Shown here: piece after piece, positions 6,182 through 17,053 of the stretch
Numbering within the stretch: the stretch's first letter is position 1
How the letters are laid out: the number at the start of each line of letters is the position of its first letter
DNA from: a virus
Reading direction: 5' to 3' (one strand)
Virus record (IMG/VR): IMGVR_UViG_3300010236_000015
Length of the DNA: 23,936 bases
Notes under the pieces: model-generated
The model's input: only the letters and a program-made list of their open reading frames with translations
Told to the model about the DNA's origin: nothing
The model's database searches: none
Made by a program: the position numbers and the translations under genes

Positions 6182-6544
6182 ATGGACGAGATAACGACCG
6201 ATCTGATGGCCGTCCTCATGGGGGCCTATCAGACGACGAGGGTGAAACTCCCTCGGAAGAGGCTGAAGGCTGACTGGTTCGCCAGCCAGCTCAAGATAGC
6301 GAGCCGAGCGGCCACCGTTCCGGCAGCGCTGGACATCCTCAGGAAGAGGACCGATCCGGCCTGGTGGGACTTCGATCCGCTCACCGTGGCGATGTTGGAT
6401 GAGAACCATCGGGGCGAGGTGCTCAGGAGGCTCCGCCAGGAGACGATGCTCCTCGCGGCCCTGGTGGCGGCGGAAGCGCAAAAAACCAAGATGCGAAAAG
6501 GTAGCAAGAGCCTGGAATCGTTTGGAGTAGGTGAGGGAGAATGA
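6182..6544 (+). CDS. cas11: Type IV-B small subunit (Cas11-like)
   Basis: 120-aa all-helical protein between csf1 and csf2; call rests on position and composition. Confidence 0.65.
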   Translation: MDEITTDLMAVLMGAYQTTRVKLPRKRLKADWFASQLKIASRAATVPAALDILRKRTDPAWWDFDPLTVAMLDENHRGEVLRRLRQETMLLAALVAAEAQKTKMRKGSKSLESFGVGEGE

Positions 6545-7413
6545 ACGTCGAAGTTTTGGAGGGGCTGCTGCACGTCATGAGCCCCGTAGTGAGCGGATCG
6601 GACGAACACACTGGAAACCATACCGACATCCGGAGGATTACGTTCTCCGTCGATGGCGCGCCGGTTGACATCCCAGTGATCAGCGGAAACAGCATCCGAG
6701 GCCAGCTCCGGAGGTTGGTCATGGCCGACATGCTGGAGCGCGTCGGGAAGATCCCGACCGGGCTCGACCTGGCCGAGATCGAGAAGATGGCGTCTCAGTC
6801 GAAAGGGTTCGCCCGCCTCTGGCATTCGCTATGCTCCGGCGGGATGTTGGAGCAGGTCGCCGAGAAAGACTCGGGGTACGTTGATCTCGCCATGAAGAGG
6901 TCAATCAGGACGGCTCTCCCGCCCGTATCCGTCCTGGGGACGGCGATCGGGAACCAGATGATCCAGGGGAAGATTGACGTGGCAATCGCCCGCCCCTGCT
7001 GCATCGAGCTGAAAGACGGCATCCCCGAGAAGTTCCGGCTGTTCTGCAGTCAGTCGTACCGCGAACTGGAAGGGACGACCTTCGGGACGAGGAAAGACGA
7101 CCTCCACGAAGAGCGGGACGAAGGCGACGCGGCTACCCAGATGCTCTACACCTACGACTACATCTCCCCCGGAGCGAAGCTCTATCACCGGCTCACGCTC
7201 GTCAACTGCAACGATATCGAGCGGGCGGTCGTCGGGAGGATGGTCCAGCTTTGGATGGCCCGCCCCCGGATCGGGGGGAAGGCTGGCACCGGCCACGGCG
7301 AGATATCCGTCGACTACGACAGCGTCCCAGACGACGCTCCCTGGACGGCCTGGATGGACGCCAACCGGACCAAGATCCTCGATATGCTGGCGGAACTGGA
7401 GGGGGGATCCTAA
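6541..7413 (+). CDS. csf2: Type IV Cas7-family backbone protein Csf2
   Basis: IPVISGNSIRGQLRR, LCSGGML, LPPVSVLGTAIGNQMIQGKI, and a C-terminal Gly-rich loop IGGKAGTGHG. Confidence 0.9.
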   Translation: MNVEVLEGLLHVMSPVVSGSDEHTGNHTDIRRITFSVDGAPVDIPVISGNSIRGQLRRLVMADMLERVGKIPTGLDLAEIEKMASQSKGFARLWHSLCSGGMLEQVAEKDSGYVDLAMKRSIRTALPPVSVLGTAIGNQMIQGKIDVAIARPCCIELKDGIPEKFRLFCSQSYRELEGTTFGTRKDDLHEERDEGDAATQMLYTYDYISPGAKLYHRLTLVNCNDIERAVVGRMVQLWMARPRIGGKAGTGHGEISVDYDSVPDDAPWTAWMDANRTKILDMLAELEGGS

Positions 7414-8193: not shown

Positions 8194-8892
8194 ATGATGA
8201 CTGAATCATGGCGCTCCACTTTTTTGGCGTGGTCGGAGCTGGCTGACTACCAGGAGCGGATTGAGGAGGCCCACCGGAACATCGCCCGATCGGTGGCGTC
8301 TCGCCTGAAGGCTTATTGTAGCTACTCCGGTGGGAAGGATTCGACGGTCCTCGTCCACCTATGCCTGTCGGTCGATCCTGATATGATGGTATTCCATTGG
8401 AAGTTTAGCCCGTGGCAGCTCCCGGGGCCGATCGAGGCCGAGGTTTTGCGGAACCTCGAACGGTTGGGGGCCAAAAATAAGCTGATCGAGACATCCCCCC
8501 AGTATGCGAAATACAAGCGGTCGCTGCCGTCGGAGATATTCTACCGGTCCCTTTTCGGGCGGGTCGAGCCCGCTCTAGTGGAGGCAGGATATGATCTCTG
8601 TTTCCTGGGTCTGCGAGCCGAAGAGAGTGGGGCCCGGAAGCGGAGAACAAAAGATGGTTGGGACAAGCCCGGCAAAATTCCGACTCATCACCCCTTGAAA
8701 GACTTGAAATGGCAGGACGTTTGGGCGTACATCATATCCCATGACCTGCCTTATCTGGGATGGTATGATACGCAGGAATCATTAGGCATCGGATATAATC
8801 GGTCCCGGTTCGGGATGTTCTTCATGGCGTCGAAAGGGAACGCGGAAGTGGACGCGGTTCTACTTCCACAATATCTACATAATTGGAGGTAG
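8194..8892 (+). CDS. CysH-like (PAPS-reductase fold, adenine nucleotide alpha-hydrolase) protein of type IV-B loci
   Basis: PP-loop SYSGGKDS, LGLRAEESGARKRR, PLKDLKWQDVWAYI; lacks the C-terminal ECG(L/I)H redox motif. Confidence 0.85.
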   Translation: MMTESWRSTFLAWSELADYQERIEEAHRNIARSVASRLKAYCSYSGGKDSTVLVHLCLSVDPDMMVFHWKFSPWQLPGPIEAEVLRNLERLGAKNKLIETSPQYAKYKRSLPSEIFYRSLFGRVEPALVEAGYDLCFLGLRAEESGARKRRTKDGWDKPGKIPTHHPLKDLKWQDVWAYIISHDLPYLGWYDTQESLGIGYNRSRFGMFFMASKGNAEVDAVLLPQYLHNWR

Positions 8893-10277: not shown

Positions 10278-10810
10278 GGCACGTGCCGAGTGTATATTTA
10301 GCAGGTAAAATGTTTGTCCGGGGAACGGGCCATGATGTAGAGCCGATCCCCTGGCGCGATTTGTTCTTTAACTCGACCCCGCCGGACCTGAACTCAAATT
10401 ATCTGCCCGGCGAATATCAGAGCCCCACACACCTATCAGAATCTGAGATCGAGTACGCTGCACAGACGAAAGGGCGATACCCCATTCGTAAGAATGCAAT
10501 TGACTTACTAGCCTATACGACGAAACTGCAGGATTTCGGTCCGGCTGACAGAGTTAAATTTGATTACGTCGGCCCGTTTTTTTGGGGAAGGACTCGGATG
10601 GGGTGCTATCAGCACGGGGCGCTAATGGGGGTATGCAGGGGCGCGAAATGTGAATTTGGTATGTGGGAGCCCCACGGCGGTGGGTGCATAGGATCGTCCT
10701 CGGATTATTCATCGCCGTTTTTCGATTATTACATCGGCGAGCACTCGTCCGATCCCGCCCCGCAACGCCCTGGAGGAGTAAGCCTTGGTACTGGCGGACG
10801 ATACCATTAA
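10274..10810 (+). CDS. Nucleoside 2-deoxyribosyltransferase-like (YLAG family) protein, possibly C-terminally truncated
   Basis: N-terminal VYLAGKM...WR and YVGPFF...HG; no GTxxExG motif found. Confidence 0.35.
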   Translation: MRHVPSVYLAGKMFVRGTGHDVEPIPWRDLFFNSTPPDLNSNYLPGEYQSPTHLSESEIEYAAQTKGRYPIRKNAIDLLAYTTKLQDFGPADRVKFDYVGPFFWGRTRMGCYQHGALMGVCRGAKCEFGMWEPHGGGCIGSSSDYSSPFFDYYIGEHSSDPAPQRPGGVSLGTGGRYH

Positions 10811-12923
10811 GGCCGCCATCGAGGACGACCGATGGATCGGGTTTACGGCCTACCTCCCCCCCTGCATCGAAGGGGTCTGGGAGGAAGGGGCCATCGAAGA
10901 GACGGGGCGAACGTGCCGGCTTATAGCCCTGTATTTCAAAGGGATTATCGACGAGCTCTTCGAGGGAGAGGGGACCGCGGAGACGCCGTTCGCGTCGTGG
11001 CTTGAAGACGAGATCGGAGGAGGCACAGGGAACCTCCAGAGGTTCCTAGACTGGAACGATAGATGCAAGCACCCATTATCGAAAAAGGAGATTATAGGGA
11101 TCGTTTACCGGGTGGTAGACAGCCCCCGGACGTGTCCGACGTGCAAAGAGCTTCAATCCATTGCGGGAACGGGGATATATTGCGTTGAAGAGGACTGCAA
11201 GAGATCGGCGAAGGATAAGCAGGCACACAAAACTCAACAGATGGCTATCGTGGGGGACGAGCCGCTTACCCCCAGGGGAAACGCCGAGAGGCTTATCAGG
11301 CTCTTCGGTACGTCGATGAGGTTCAATCATACTGATGGAAAATGGTATCTTTGGAACGGATCTCTCTGGCATCCGGATGATAATGGCGGGGCGTTCCGGC
11401 GAGCGGAGGAGGTCGTGGTGGAGCTTTACCGATTCGCCGCCGAAGCGGAGGATTCTGGGAAGAGGGAACTCAGGTCATCGTGGGCTCGCCGATGCGATGG
11501 GATGGGCGGTTATCGGGAGATGTTGGAGATCGCCAAAAATAAGCACCCCATAACCTCTACAATTGAACTATTCGATCAGGACCCCTGGCTATTTACATGC
11601 CAGAACGTCACGCTAGACCTTCAGAGTGGCGTCGTGACAGAGCCGAAGCCGGGCCATTTCATCACGAAAGCGGCCAGCGTCGTTTACGACCCCGACGCGA
11701 AAGCGCCGCTATGGGATGCGTTCCTAAAAGACGTATTTCGGGACTCGTCGGGGGATCCGGACGGGGAGCTTATATCTTTCGTCCAACAGGCCGTCGGCTA
11801 TTCGCTCACCGGATCGATGGCGGAGCAGATGTTCTTTTTCTGCTATGGGGCCGGAGCCAACGGGAAGAGTGTCTTCCTGTCGGTGATCCGGGATATGATG
11901 GGCGACTATGCCCGCCAGACTGATTTTAACACCTTTTTGGTGCAGCGGAACGAATCGGTGAGGAACGACGTGGCGGCTCTGGCCGGGGCGCGGTTCGTAA
12001 CGGCCCTGGAGTCGGAGGAGGGGAAGAGGCTGGCGATGGCCCTCATCAAGGCATGGACGGGGGGCGATCCGATCACGGCGCGGTTCCTCCATCAAGAGTA
12101 CTTCACGTTCAATCCTGTCGGGAAGCTCTGGTTTGCCTCAAATACCAAGCCGATGATAACCGAGAGGAATAAGGGAGCATGGAGGCGCGTCTGCATGATT
12201 CCATTTACCGTGTCGATCCCCCCCGAGATGCAAGACCCGGACCTTGAAGATAAGCTTCTGAAAGAGCTTCCAGGCATCTTCAACTGGGCGTTAGACGGTC
12301 TAAAGAAGTACTTAGAAGTTGGTAAATTAGAGCTACCTTCCGGTGTTACGAACGCGACTAAATTGTATCGTGAGGAGTATGACTCTATAGGATCGTTTAT
12401 ACAGTCGCGGGTTAAATATGATAAAAATGCGTATATACTCGGAAAAGAATTATATTCCGCCTATGAAGAGTTCTGTGAAGAGGCCGGATACACCCCGCTA
12501 GGAAAGCGGAAGTTCAACCAAGAAATCGAGAGCGAGCCCGGTGTTATGAAATCTGACTTCCGGCATTCTATTAAGTGGATTGGCATCGAACTACTTGGTG
12601 AAACTATCGAGACTGTGAGTAATGTGAGTTATGTGAGTCGAAATCTGGGTTTTAGCTACGTGAAGGAAATTATAGGAAAAAACCTGGAAATGGACTCACA
12701 TAACTCACAAACTCACATCCAGGGTGAAATTGAGACAGTTGGCGACTTCGGGCCTCCCTCTCAGATATCCCAGATCCTAGCCGATCACATCCGGAAGGGA
12801 ACCCCGATCCGGACGAGGGACTATCCCGACATCGACGAGCTGGAGATGCTGGAGGCCCTGGATGCCGGAGGATGGACAGAGAAACGCGGCGTCTGGTGGC
12901 CGCCATCGGAGGAGACGAGATGA
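10785..12923 (+). CDS. Replication protein: PriL-CTD/PriCT-like Cys4 domain, D5_N, SF3 helicase (P4/D5 family) and winged helix
   Basis: TTG start with SD ggaggag; LPPCI...CPTC...YC...DC; Walker A YGAGANGKS; TGGDPITARFL; LWFASNTKP; WRRVCMIPF. Confidence 0.9.
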   Translation: MVLADDTIKAAIEDDRWIGFTAYLPPCIEGVWEEGAIEETGRTCRLIALYFKGIIDELFEGEGTAETPFASWLEDEIGGGTGNLQRFLDWNDRCKHPLSKKEIIGIVYRVVDSPRTCPTCKELQSIAGTGIYCVEEDCKRSAKDKQAHKTQQMAIVGDEPLTPRGNAERLIRLFGTSMRFNHTDGKWYLWNGSLWHPDDNGGAFRRAEEVVVELYRFAAEAEDSGKRELRSSWARRCDGMGGYREMLEIAKNKHPITSTIELFDQDPWLFTCQNVTLDLQSGVVTEPKPGHFITKAASVVYDPDAKAPLWDAFLKDVFRDSSGDPDGELISFVQQAVGYSLTGSMAEQMFFFCYGAGANGKSVFLSVIRDMMGDYARQTDFNTFLVQRNESVRNDVAALAGARFVTALESEEGKRLAMALIKAWTGGDPITARFLHQEYFTFNPVGKLWFASNTKPMITERNKGAWRRVCMIPFTVSIPPEMQDPDLEDKLLKELPGIFNWALDGLKKYLEVGKLELPSGVTNATKLYREEYDSIGSFIQSRVKYDKNAYILGKELYSAYEEFCEEAGYTPLGKRKFNQEIESEPGVMKSDFRHSIKWIGIELLGETIETVSNVSYVSRNLGFSYVKEIIGKNLEMDSHNSQTHIQGEIETVGDFGPPSQISQILADHIRKGTPIRTRDYPDIDELEMLEALDAGGWTEKRGVWWPPSEETR
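12614..12717. repeat. Intragenic inverted iteron cluster, candidate replication origin
   Basis: TGTGAGT three times (12614, 12623, 12632) facing ACTCACA three times (12694, 12703, 12711); 17-bp perfect inverted repeat; 53-bp spacer at about 36% GC. Confidence 0.75.
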
Positions 12924-13084
12924 AGATCATGGTAGTACTGGAAGACATCCCGGCGTTCGTCGGGCTCGATGAGAAGGTCTGGAAGCTGCGGCGGGGCGAC
13001 ATGGTGAGCGTCAACCCCGGTCTCCCTTTCAGGCAGGCAAAGATTCTGATCGACAGGGAGAAGGCCCGATGGGTAGGGCTTTAA
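12920..13084 (+). CDS. Stand-alone GINS B-domain-like miniprotein (54 aa)
   Basis: MVVLEDIPAFVGLDEKVWKLRRGDMVSV...AKILIDREKARWV matches the archaeal Gins51 C-terminal pattern as recalled; ATGA-coupled to the helicase. Confidence 0.7.
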   Translation: MKIMVVLEDIPAFVGLDEKVWKLRRGDMVSVNPGLPFRQAKILIDREKARWVGL

Positions 13085-13091
13085 GGAGACG

Positions 13092-13370
13092 ATGAAGATG
13101 GACAAATTGACCACAACGATATACAAGACCCCGAACTGCCCCAGATGCCGCGAACTGGCGGCATACTTGACCCAGCTGGGGGTCGATTTCGACGAACAGG
13201 ATATGAGCTCATCAGAGGTATTGACCGATCTCCGATGTGAGGGCGTCTTTGTGATGGAGGCCCCCGTTCTCCGGGTGGGCACGACGTATCACAATACTAA
13301 TATCCTCTGGAATGGCAACAGGCTCGCGGCCGGATATGTGGCCGGCCTCTTCGGGAGGGGGTCGGAATGA
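13092..13370 (+). CDS. Glutaredoxin/NrdH-like redoxin
   Basis: IYKTPNCPRC...GVDFDEQDM...EAPVLRVG. Confidence 0.85.
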   Translation: MKMDKLTTTIYKTPNCPRCRELAAYLTQLGVDFDEQDMSSSEVLTDLRCEGVFVMEAPVLRVGTTYHNTNILWNGNRLAAGYVAGLFGRGSE

Positions 13371-15264: not shown

Positions 15265-15804
15265 ATGGCTTTTGAATCTATACAAGGTGATTTGGACAAA
15301 ATAGAAGAGCTTTTGTCCAAGGGCCTGAGCCCGCAATCCATAGCAAAAAAGCTGGGATATCCGAAGAAGTACAAGACGATTCAGAGGTACAAGAGAGACG
15401 TCTTCGACGTCCAAGCCGCTGCATCCGAGGCCTGGGAAGAGGAGAAGGCCAAGACGACCGAGGAGAGGCTCGAAGAGGGCAAGGTCCGAATCATAGACTC
15501 CCTGGAACTCCTCAACCTGGCGAAGCTTCGGGGCTGGCAACTCCTCGATCTCAATATTGGCGATCCGTACAAGACGGCCGGAGATGAGCAGGAGAAGGCC
15601 CTGTCTCTAGGATCGTGTGCGATTTACTGGGATCTAGGCACCAAGATCGCAACCCAAGCCATCCGACAAGAGCAAGAGATCGCCGGGGACGACCCGGAAA
15701 GCCGCAAGGCCGACGCCCTGGAGGGGTTAGGTGAGTCAGAGCTTAGAGAGCTTCATAAACTCCTTGTCGCTCGAAGGGACGAACTCGGTTCTGAAGCTGA
15801 CTAG
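15265..15804 (+). CDS. Putative terminase small subunit
   Basis: N-terminal HTH (IEELLSKGLSPQSIAKKLG), helical body, directly before TerL; start TTG 15247 or ATG 15265. Confidence 0.6.
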   Translation: MAFESIQGDLDKIEELLSKGLSPQSIAKKLGYPKKYKTIQRYKRDVFDVQAAASEAWEEEKAKTTEERLEEGKVRIIDSLELLNLAKLRGWQLLDLNIGDPYKTAGDEQEKALSLGSCAIYWDLGTKIATQAIRQEQEIAGDDPESRKADALEGLGESELRELHKLLVARRDELGSEAD

Positions 15805-17053
15805 ACGGAAGCTCGCCCCGTTCGATCCGGTCATCTTCGCTCAGGAATTTCTCGGATTCGAACCGGATTCCTGGCAGGCCGACTTCCTCCGATCGAAGGC
15901 CCCTCGGATTATCCTCAACTGCTCAAGGCAATCGGGCAAATCGACGATCGTGGCGATCCTCGCCTTGTGGGAGGCGATGTATCGGCCCAAGTCGGTTATC
16001 GTCCTCGATTCGCCATCTCTTCGCCAGTCTCAAGAATTGATGCTCAAATTCTCAGAGTTCTTAGCACAGATAGATCAAAAAGTAAAACTGGATTCGGACA
16101 CTAAGCTATCCGTCCGATTTCAGAACGGTTCAAGGGTCCTCGCCCTCCCGGGATCGGAGAAGACGATCAGAGGGCTTTCGGCTGTAACCCTATTCATCGA
16201 GGACGAAGCTGCGGGGGTTCCAGACGAGCTTTACAAATCCATCCGCCCCATGCTGGCGGTATCTCAGGGGAGGCTTATCCTGATGTCCACCCCGCGTGGG
16301 ATGCAAGGCCATTTCTTCGATATCTGGGAGCATGGTGAGGGGTGGGAGAAGATCGAAGTCAAGGCCGAACAATGCCCCCGGATCTCCCCCGACTTCCTGG
16401 CAGAAGAGAGGCGAGAGCTTGGGCCGATCTGGTTCGAGCAAGAGTACCAATGCGCGTTCGTGGCGGCGGGGGCGACTCGGATCAAGAGAGAGTGGTTGAG
16501 ATACGATGACCGTCCACCTCAAGACCTCAAAATCTCGATGGGCGTGGATCTGGCTATCTCGGAAAAAGCCACAGCCGACTATACGGCGGCGGCGGTCTTG
16601 GGCCGTGATCGGGACGGCGTGATCTACGTTCTCGATATCCAACGGCTCCGGACGTCGTTTTCCCAGCAGAAGGATTTCATCCACCAGATAGCCGAAAAGT
16701 GGCGGCCCGCTGTTATAGGGATCGAGGACGTTGCCTATCAGAAGGCGATGGTCCAGGAGATCGCCGCCGGGACGACTCATAACGTCCGGGGCATCAAGCC
16801 CGACAAGGATAAGATCTCACGGTTTGCCCCCCTGGAGGGCCGGTACGAACTCGGCCAGGTAGTCCATCTCCGGGGTCTTCCGCCCGATTTCGAAAGGGAA
16901 CTGCTGGCTTTCCCGATGGCCGACCACGACGACATGATCGATGCGATGAGTATCGCTTTCAAAGCCTTCGACGAGATGGCTACGATGTCCTACTCCCTCC
17001 CCCCGACGGCCATCAAGGGCCGGTCCCGCGCTCCGAAAAACACGTATTGGTAG
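15731..17053 (+). CDS. terL: Terminase large subunit
   Basis: Walker A SRQSGKS, Walker B LFIEDEAA, RNase H-like MGVDLA...ADYTA...HDDMIDAMS. Confidence 0.95.
   Translation: MSQSLESFINSLSLEGTNSVLKLTRRKLAPFDPVIFAQEFLGFEPDSWQADFLRSKAPRIILNCSRQSGKSTIVAILALWEAMYRPKSVIVLDSPSLRQSQELMLKFSEFLAQIDQKVKLDSDTKLSVRFQNGSRVLALPGSEKTIRGLSAVTLFIEDEAAGVPDELYKSIRPMLAVSQGRLILMSTPRGMQGHFFDIWEHGEGWEKIEVKAEQCPRISPDFLAEERRELGPIWFEQEYQCAFVAAGATRIKREWLRYDDRPPQDLKISMGVDLAISEKATADYTAAAVLGRDRDGVIYVLDIQRLRTSFSQQKDFIHQIAEKWRPAVIGIEDVAYQKAMVQEIAAGTTHNVRGIKPDKDKISRFAPLEGRYELGQVVHLRGLPPDFERELLAFPMADHDDMIDAMSIAFKAFDEMATMSYSLPPTAIKGRSRAPKNTYW

Follow-up and report, generated by a model that had tools for sequence, protein, structure and literature searches.

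In this paper we describe a miniprotein encoded in a stretch of 23,936 nucleotides from the IMG/VR virus record IMGVR_UViG_3300010236_000015, the whole of which we call the window. Its gene follows that of a D5-like superfamily 3 (SF3) replicative helicase, and it places a known domain, the C-terminal B-domain of the archaeal replication protein Gins51 (Gins51C), in a new setting, a recurrent viral architecture linked to helicases. We are highly confident that the miniprotein is a real B-domain homologue and that it is functionally tied to the viral replicative ATPase. A preliminary description made from the letters of the DNA had proposed both the domain and its link to the SF3 helicase. The domain assignment is now borne out by sequence profile, by hhalign and by predicted fold, and the link by recurrent fusions and conserved adjacency. 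In the literature we searched, which does not cover all journals, we found no description of a viral or stand-alone B-domain, or of its fusion to a D5-like helicase.

Identity of the miniprotein and its gene

The miniprotein matches the Pfam family Gins51_C (PF22090) with an E-value of 7.4e-5 and 22.9 bits (curated cut-off 27) over profile positions 5-47 of 48, and four of its close homologues carry a precomputed match to the same family. When 1.84 billion representative proteins were searched exhaustively with a profile, 13 matches came back. Three of them (P0035, P0036 and P0041; E 3.5e-5 to 4e-4) are proteins of about 190 aa that have a Gins51_C domain at the C-terminus, an A-domain of the Sld5 type, or both. 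When the viral family is compared by hhalign with these cellular Gins51 proteins, it aligns to their C-terminal domain with 98.7% probability (E 1.6e-16, 43% identity over 47 columns), and the viral and cellular B-domains have in common the motif (V/I)LEDIPxFVGxD...L.kGD...A..LI..gkA. Sequence searches of the PDB with the single protein and with a narrow family profile found no GINS entry; it took a wider alignment, with cellular Gins51 included, to reach 3ANW and 5GHR.

The predicted structure agrees with this assignment. The B-domain fold has been described as consisting of two sheets, one antiparallel with three strands and lying beside a helix, the other with two strands (PMC2861644), and this arrangement is found in the AlphaFold2 (AF2) model of the miniprotein (pLDDT 92.8), which has strands at residues 2-6, 10-14, 20-23, 28-31 and 49-52 and a helix at 35-45. 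The top four Foldseek matches in the PDB are all Gins51C of T. kodakarensis (5GHR, 5GHS, 3ANW; TM 0.73, rmsd 2.2, 30% identity). In an exhaustive VIA-align comparison the top two are again T. kodakarensis Gins51C chains (Z 7.2 and 7.1, 50 residues aligned, 32% identity), followed by human Sld5 at Z 6.7, Gins23 of S. solfataricus at Z 5.6 and the PriS primase subunit's C-terminal domain (PriS-CTD; Z 4.9). The preliminary description had staked its assignment on a structural match to the GINS B-domain, and both searches rank Gins51C first. Both sequence and fold of the miniprotein are nearer to Gins51C than to PriS-CTD or Gins23.

The miniprotein consists of this domain only. There is no Pfam match to Sld5 (PF05916), the GINS A-domain, in its 54 residues, and the frame upstream is the C-terminus of the helicase. 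Since the A-domain is missing, we regard the miniprotein as a B-domain homologue and not as a GINS subunit. It does not belong with PriS-CTD either: its polypeptide carries no archaeo-eukaryotic primase (AEP) domain, and by Pfam none is recognised in the window helicase.

Several features argue that the open reading frame (ORF), whose product is MKIMVVLEDIPAFVGLDEKVWKLRRGDMVSVNPGLPFRQAKILIDREKARWVGL, lies beyond chance. A word-based search of public metagenomes found 31 protein clusters with 74-100% identity to the miniprotein, called at 54 or 70 aa. The ATGA overlap of its start codon with the helicase stop codon is retained in the window and in all seven related loci examined (L007-L013). 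Between diverged copies, substitutions fall mostly at the third codon position (6/4/17, 8/6/23 and 13/6/23 for positions 1/2/3, the last of these for the window against L010), and only the miniprotein frame is without stops across the copies, the other two containing 1-8. This pattern identifies the ORF as a real gene under purifying selection. The ATGA overlap indicates translational coupling of helicase and miniprotein, and the purine-rich sequence upstream of the start has a counterpart in L007-L010. The ORF, its ATGA coupling and the residue pattern quoted in the preliminary description all hold when the ORF, its translation and the DNA are read again.

A longer form of 70 aa, starting at ATG 12872, is frequent in public gene calls. 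We rejected this start because of its substitution pattern and the spacing of its ribosome-binding site. The few changes in the 16-residue extension (window 12872-12919) leave the encoded helicase residues unchanged but alter those of the extension, and the GGAGG of this start stands immediately before the ATG, leaving no spacer, so we judge the extension to be non-coding and the call to be mistaken. No slippery heptamer was seen when positions 12870-12920 were inspected by eye for a programmed -1 frameshift through which this virus might join the helicase to the B-domain. In the same region, 38 nt at the 3' end of the helicase gene (window 12867-12904, GGAGGATGG...GGCCGCC) are identical in L010, the most diverged copy, and carry a single synonymous change each in L008 and L009, while the adjoining B-domain gene differs at about 40% of its third positions. 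This conservation could stem from a recombination joint, from an element acting in RNA or in translation initiation, or from a Trp-rich coding constraint.

Association with replicative ATPases

In every locus with enough context, the B-domain is found inside or next to a gene for a replicative ATPase; three more B-domain loci (L016-L018) are too short for the context to be judged. It is fused in-frame in at least five distinct D5-like helicase lineages (see table), and of the best 120 helicase homologues listed only 3 have it as a fusion. A word-based search for longer relatives came back empty; the fusions surfaced in the exhaustive representative search and in the helicase search. The order of domains is not fixed, as the B-domain occurs together with a winged-helix tail in either order, following it in P0034 and preceding it in P0040.

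We also observed a second stand-alone subfamily on viral contigs (P0032/P0167; L019 and L026), in which a PrimPol-D5 helicase gene is followed by one small gene and then by the B-domain gene. The small gene (L019 7744-8004, L026 4699-5004) encodes 86-101 aa with no assigned function and overlaps the B-domain gene by 4 nt. In L005 the frames of small gene and B-domain read through as a single 119-aa call (P0033). A further protein, P0039 (L018 790-1128), consists of 112 aa with two tandem B-domains, the second of which also matches Pfam DUF7210; its contig carries small genes and looks like a mobile element.

The helicase of the window has the D5_N, DUF5906 and Pox_D5 domains typical of its family. 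A Cys-rich N-terminal domain (aa 1-166) is followed by D5_N (167-318), a DUF5906 P-loop core (354-468) and Pox_D5 (531-583), and then by a low-complexity stretch and the C-terminal winged helix. No primase domain is recognised in it by Pfam. Among close relatives the ATPase core of this protein has been exchanged. P0150 has the Cys-rich N-terminal domain (78% identity) and the last ~54 residues (76%) as in the window helicase, with an AAA_16/AAA_22-like core and HTH_3 instead of D5. In L008 (3647-6001) a PrimPol-like N-terminus is added to a P0150-type core, and the core in L010 (3683-6001) is P0150-like (41% identity). All three conserve the tail despite their different cores, and together with the ATGA-coupled B-domain gene it persists across all of these swapped-core relatives. 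PrimPol N-terminal domains are found on the protein upstream of the B-domain in L008, L019 and L026.

It could be thought that the winged-helix tail is restricted to the company of the B-domain. We rejected this idea, since a similar tail occurs in the two nearest outgroup helicases, P0048 and P0049, with no B-domain within 3 kb. A complex prediction for the tail with the miniprotein gave ipSAE values of 0.17 and 0.04 (mark 0.32), which weigh neither way.

The gene content of the window looks like that of a tailed virus, including a large terminase, a Mu-F-like head protein, an S74 chaperone at the fibre gene and RecT. The miniprotein gene has the helicase gene on one side and a glutaredoxin-like gene on the other and is located 2.6 kb upstream of the terminase. 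We did not detect a polymerase: none of the Pfam matches of the 36 window ORFs scanned is to a polymerase family, and the PolA and PolB families have no match in related virus records estimated to be 94% and 100% complete, nor in a record with direct terminal repeats. The virus is probably a tailed virus of methanogenic archaea. Homologues carry the labels of metagenome-assembled genomes (MAGs) assigned to Methanothrix and Methanoregulaceae, but also to Patescibacteria and Dehalococcoidia, and the bacterial bins are probably the result of mis-binning. The glutaredoxin-like gene is present in L007, and L008 and L009 have other sequence in its place. The window also encodes a RAMP-superfamily protein and a PAPS-reductase-domain protein.

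A scan of genome contigs recovered only short, probably mis-binned viral contigs and two cellular Gins51 loci, with a Gins51 of Micrarchaeota among its finds. On a contig of an uncultured archaeon MAG (L014 2030-3882), priS, gins51 (P0036) and an L44e ribosomal protein gene stand in synteny, which fits the reported adjacency of priS and gins genes (PMC2861644).

Table. Positions of the genes and elements discussed (window coordinates, or residues of the named protein)
Feature	Position	Strand	Description and basis
Miniprotein gene (stand-alone GINS B-domain, Gins51C-like)	12920..13084	+	54 aa, stop included; ATG 12920, TAA 13082-13084; ORF and translation
Shine-Dalgarno-like GGAGGAG	12908-12914	+	5 nt 5' of the miniprotein ATG, within the helicase coding sequence; read from sequence
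ATGA start/stop overlap, helicase/miniprotein	12920..12923	+	helicase stop TGA at 12921-12923
D5-like SF3 replicative helicase	10785..12923	+	712 aa; Pfam D5_N 1.4e-24, DUF5906 9.4e-10, Pox_D5 6.4e-8
Winged-helix tail of helicase	12756..12920	+	~55 aa; alignments; AF2 pLDDT 84; best fold matches all winged helices, Z 5.0-5.4
Glutaredoxin-like gene	13092-13370		92 aa; Pfam Glutaredoxin, E 1.6e-5; directly after the miniprotein gene
Large terminase	15731-17053		
RAMP-superfamily protein	6541-7413		E 7e-4, under cut-off
PAPS-reductase-domain protein	8194-8892		E 9e-14
P0034 (779 aa), fused B-domain	residues 727-778		42% identity to the miniprotein; immediately after the helicase tail
P0040, fused B-domain			internal, then tail; D5-like helicase
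P0054, fused B-domain			Gins51_C 31.8 bits, over Pfam cut-off
P0060, P0074, fused B-domain			after a long low-complexity Pro/Thr/Ser/Glu-rich linker
L027, L028, fused B-domain			in-frame with a D5-like helicase

Possible function of the viral B-domain

What is known of Gins51C suggests a role for its viral homologue. In T. kodakarensis, Gins51C binds the nuclease GAN through an edge strand (beta4, the last strand) and, by means of its helix, a loop and the strands beta2 and beta3, the helical N-terminal domain of the DP1 subunit of PolD (DP1N); the substitutions V148D and V170D abolish the DP1N complex, and Gins51C by itself suffices for binding both partners (PMC9023282). The B-domain of Gins51 is not needed for formation of the GINS tetramer (PMC3114041). 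The preliminary description had cited the binding of GAN and the homologous domain on PriS, both of which are correct (PMC9023282, PMC2861644), and its account was incomplete in leaving out DP1N (PMC9023282). In the viral protein the C-terminal edge strand (residues 49-52) is kept, and F13, an invariant hydrophobic position of the viral family, aligns with V148 of Gins51.

To our knowledge, it is largely unknown how archaeal viruses that encode only a helicase acquire a polymerase. By analogy with the host, we give about even chances to the possibility that the viral B-domain is a docking module of the helicase that recruits a host replisome partner, with PolD (through DP1N) and/or GAN as the leading candidates. 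In the host, PolD and GAN are joined to the MCM-GINS helicase by the tethered B-domain of Gins51. In the virus, a separate B-domain subunit, made together with the helicase through the ATGA overlap, would attach to the helicase, a contact that we infer, and in relatives the B-domain is fused to the SF3 helicase by a linker. The viral B-domain would in this way hold the viral helicase and host PolD and/or GAN together, and a virus without a polymerase could thereby build a replication fork. More tentatively, the whole might be a minimal mimic of the Cdc45-MCM-GINS (CMG) complex, in which an SF3 or other AAA+ motor with a captured Gins51 B-domain takes up host PolD, together with GAN, and does without MCM and GINS. 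In that case the B-domain would serve as a polymerase socket that can be carried from motor to motor, whatever their type. We think this stronger reading possible, with somewhat less than even chances.

Several of our observations weigh against these interpretations. The score of the miniprotein lies under the Pfam curated cut-off (22.9 against 27 bits). Its small beta/alpha fold is common, as the L9 N-terminal domain, the C-terminal domain of lambda gpFI (gpFI-C) and many phage miniproteins match at Z ~5 or TM 0.6-0.75. The outgroup helicases P0048 and P0049, which have the tail without a B-domain, indicate that the module is optional. In the viral family a conserved insertion of 4 residues (PGLPF) precedes the helix, at the loop through which V170 touches DP1N in T. 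kodakarensis, and this suggests that the DP1N interface has been remodelled and that the partner could differ. Finally, the mixed MAG labels weaken the case for an archaeal host. The low score and the common fold raise the question whether the miniprotein is a convergent or unrelated beta/alpha protein of the gpFI-C, L9-N or DUF7210 type, whose position after the helicase is incidental. For gpFI-C the fold-level match is 2LSM at Z 5.1, and an ESM Atlas feature search gave only sub-threshold matches, Packaging_FI clusters among them. Because the fold is so widespread it is insufficient as a criterion, and our assignment stands on sequence and fold jointly. The hhalign alignment to cellular Gins51 C-termini and the shared motif are hard to reconcile with an unrelated fold, as is the fact that P0054 passes the Pfam cut-off. 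Gins51C comes first in two independent structure searches, with 30-32% identity against 9-24% for other folds, Packaging_FI (PF14000) has no Pfam match up to an E-value of 1, and the gene lies in the replication module and not in the packaging module. We consider an unrelated origin highly improbable.

If the homology is accepted, the question is where the B-domain acts. A free decoy would work away from the helicase, saturating the Gins51C sites on PolD DP1 and/or GAN, uncoupling the CMG-like helicase of the host and stopping host replication. This would suit a chain of 54 aa that is made separately from a ribosome-binding site of its own and that keeps the Gins51C fold and the edge strand of a domain able to bind GAN and DP1N alone in T. 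kodakarensis (PMC9023282). But the repeated in-frame fusions to helicases in relatives would be pointless for a decoy and favour a tethered adaptor, the ATGA coupling ties expression to that of the helicase and not to an excess over it, and a block of the host replicase would starve a virus that has no polymerase of its own. A decoy seems to us an improbable use of the domain. Somewhat less doubtful, if still rather unlikely, is an accessory role of another kind, such as binding of host PriSL or PCNA, binding of DNA, or assembly or loading of the helicase, comparable to the structural PriS-CTD. B-domains are versatile: some stabilise the tetramer of eukaryotic GINS, and PriS-CTD, a homologous domain that the miniprotein matches at Z 4.9, has a proposed structural role in primase (PMC2861644). 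The PGLPF insertion in the loop facing DP1N could also be understood in this way, as could the winged-helix tail that accompanies the domain, on one side or the other, in P0034 and P0040, and recruitment of a primase would be useful as well to a helicase without a recognised primase domain. However, the closest relative in sequence and fold is Gins51C and not PriS-CTD or Gins23, and direct evidence points to no alternative partner. Docking of a host replisome partner onto the helicase remains the reading that we prefer.

The Gins51 B-domain has recently been shown to be a physical link between the archaeal CMG-like helicase and PolD or GAN. The same domain, detached from GINS and placed on unrelated viral motors by fusion or translational coupling, suggests a concrete and testable mechanism of recruitment. 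If this is true, docking is something that the B-domain does autonomously, a point of interest for the evolution of GINS, of PriS and of the eukaryotic link between Psf1 and Pol epsilon. A 54-aa binder of PolD or GAN could furthermore be used to probe or inhibit archaeal replication.

Comparison with known systems

The nearest known counterpart is the Gins51 B-domain of archaeal GINS (3ANW, 5GHR, 5GHS, 7E15), with which the miniprotein has in common a homologous motif and its fold, made up of five short strands and a helix. The B-domain of Gins51 is flexibly tethered, and some of the viral relatives likewise tether theirs to the helicase by a long linker. In contrast to archaeal Gins51, the viral miniprotein has no A-domain and so cannot join the GINS tetramer; its gene belongs to a virus, the helicase with which it is associated is an SF3 (D5-like) one and not MCM, and it carries the 4-residue insertion. 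The B-domains of eukaryotic Psf1 and Sld5 in the CMG complex (7PFO chain G, 6XTX) have the same fold, with Z 6.7 for Sld5, but only 10-15% identity, and they are part of a heterotetramer.

PriS-CTD of S. solfataricus (1ZT2) is a precedent for a B-domain-type fold on a replication enzyme other than GINS (PMC2861644), and its residues 281-328 match the miniprotein at Z 4.9 over 48 residues. This match is weaker than that to Gins51C, and PriS-CTD differs in being fused C-terminally to an AEP catalytic domain and in its proposed structural role. The window helicase itself resembles the P4/D5 primase-helicases of phages, plasmids and archaeal viruses in its D5_N, DUF5906 and Pox_D5 domains. What sets it apart from them is the B-domain; in the papers we found, no GINS B-domain, fused or adjacent, is reported for these enzymes.

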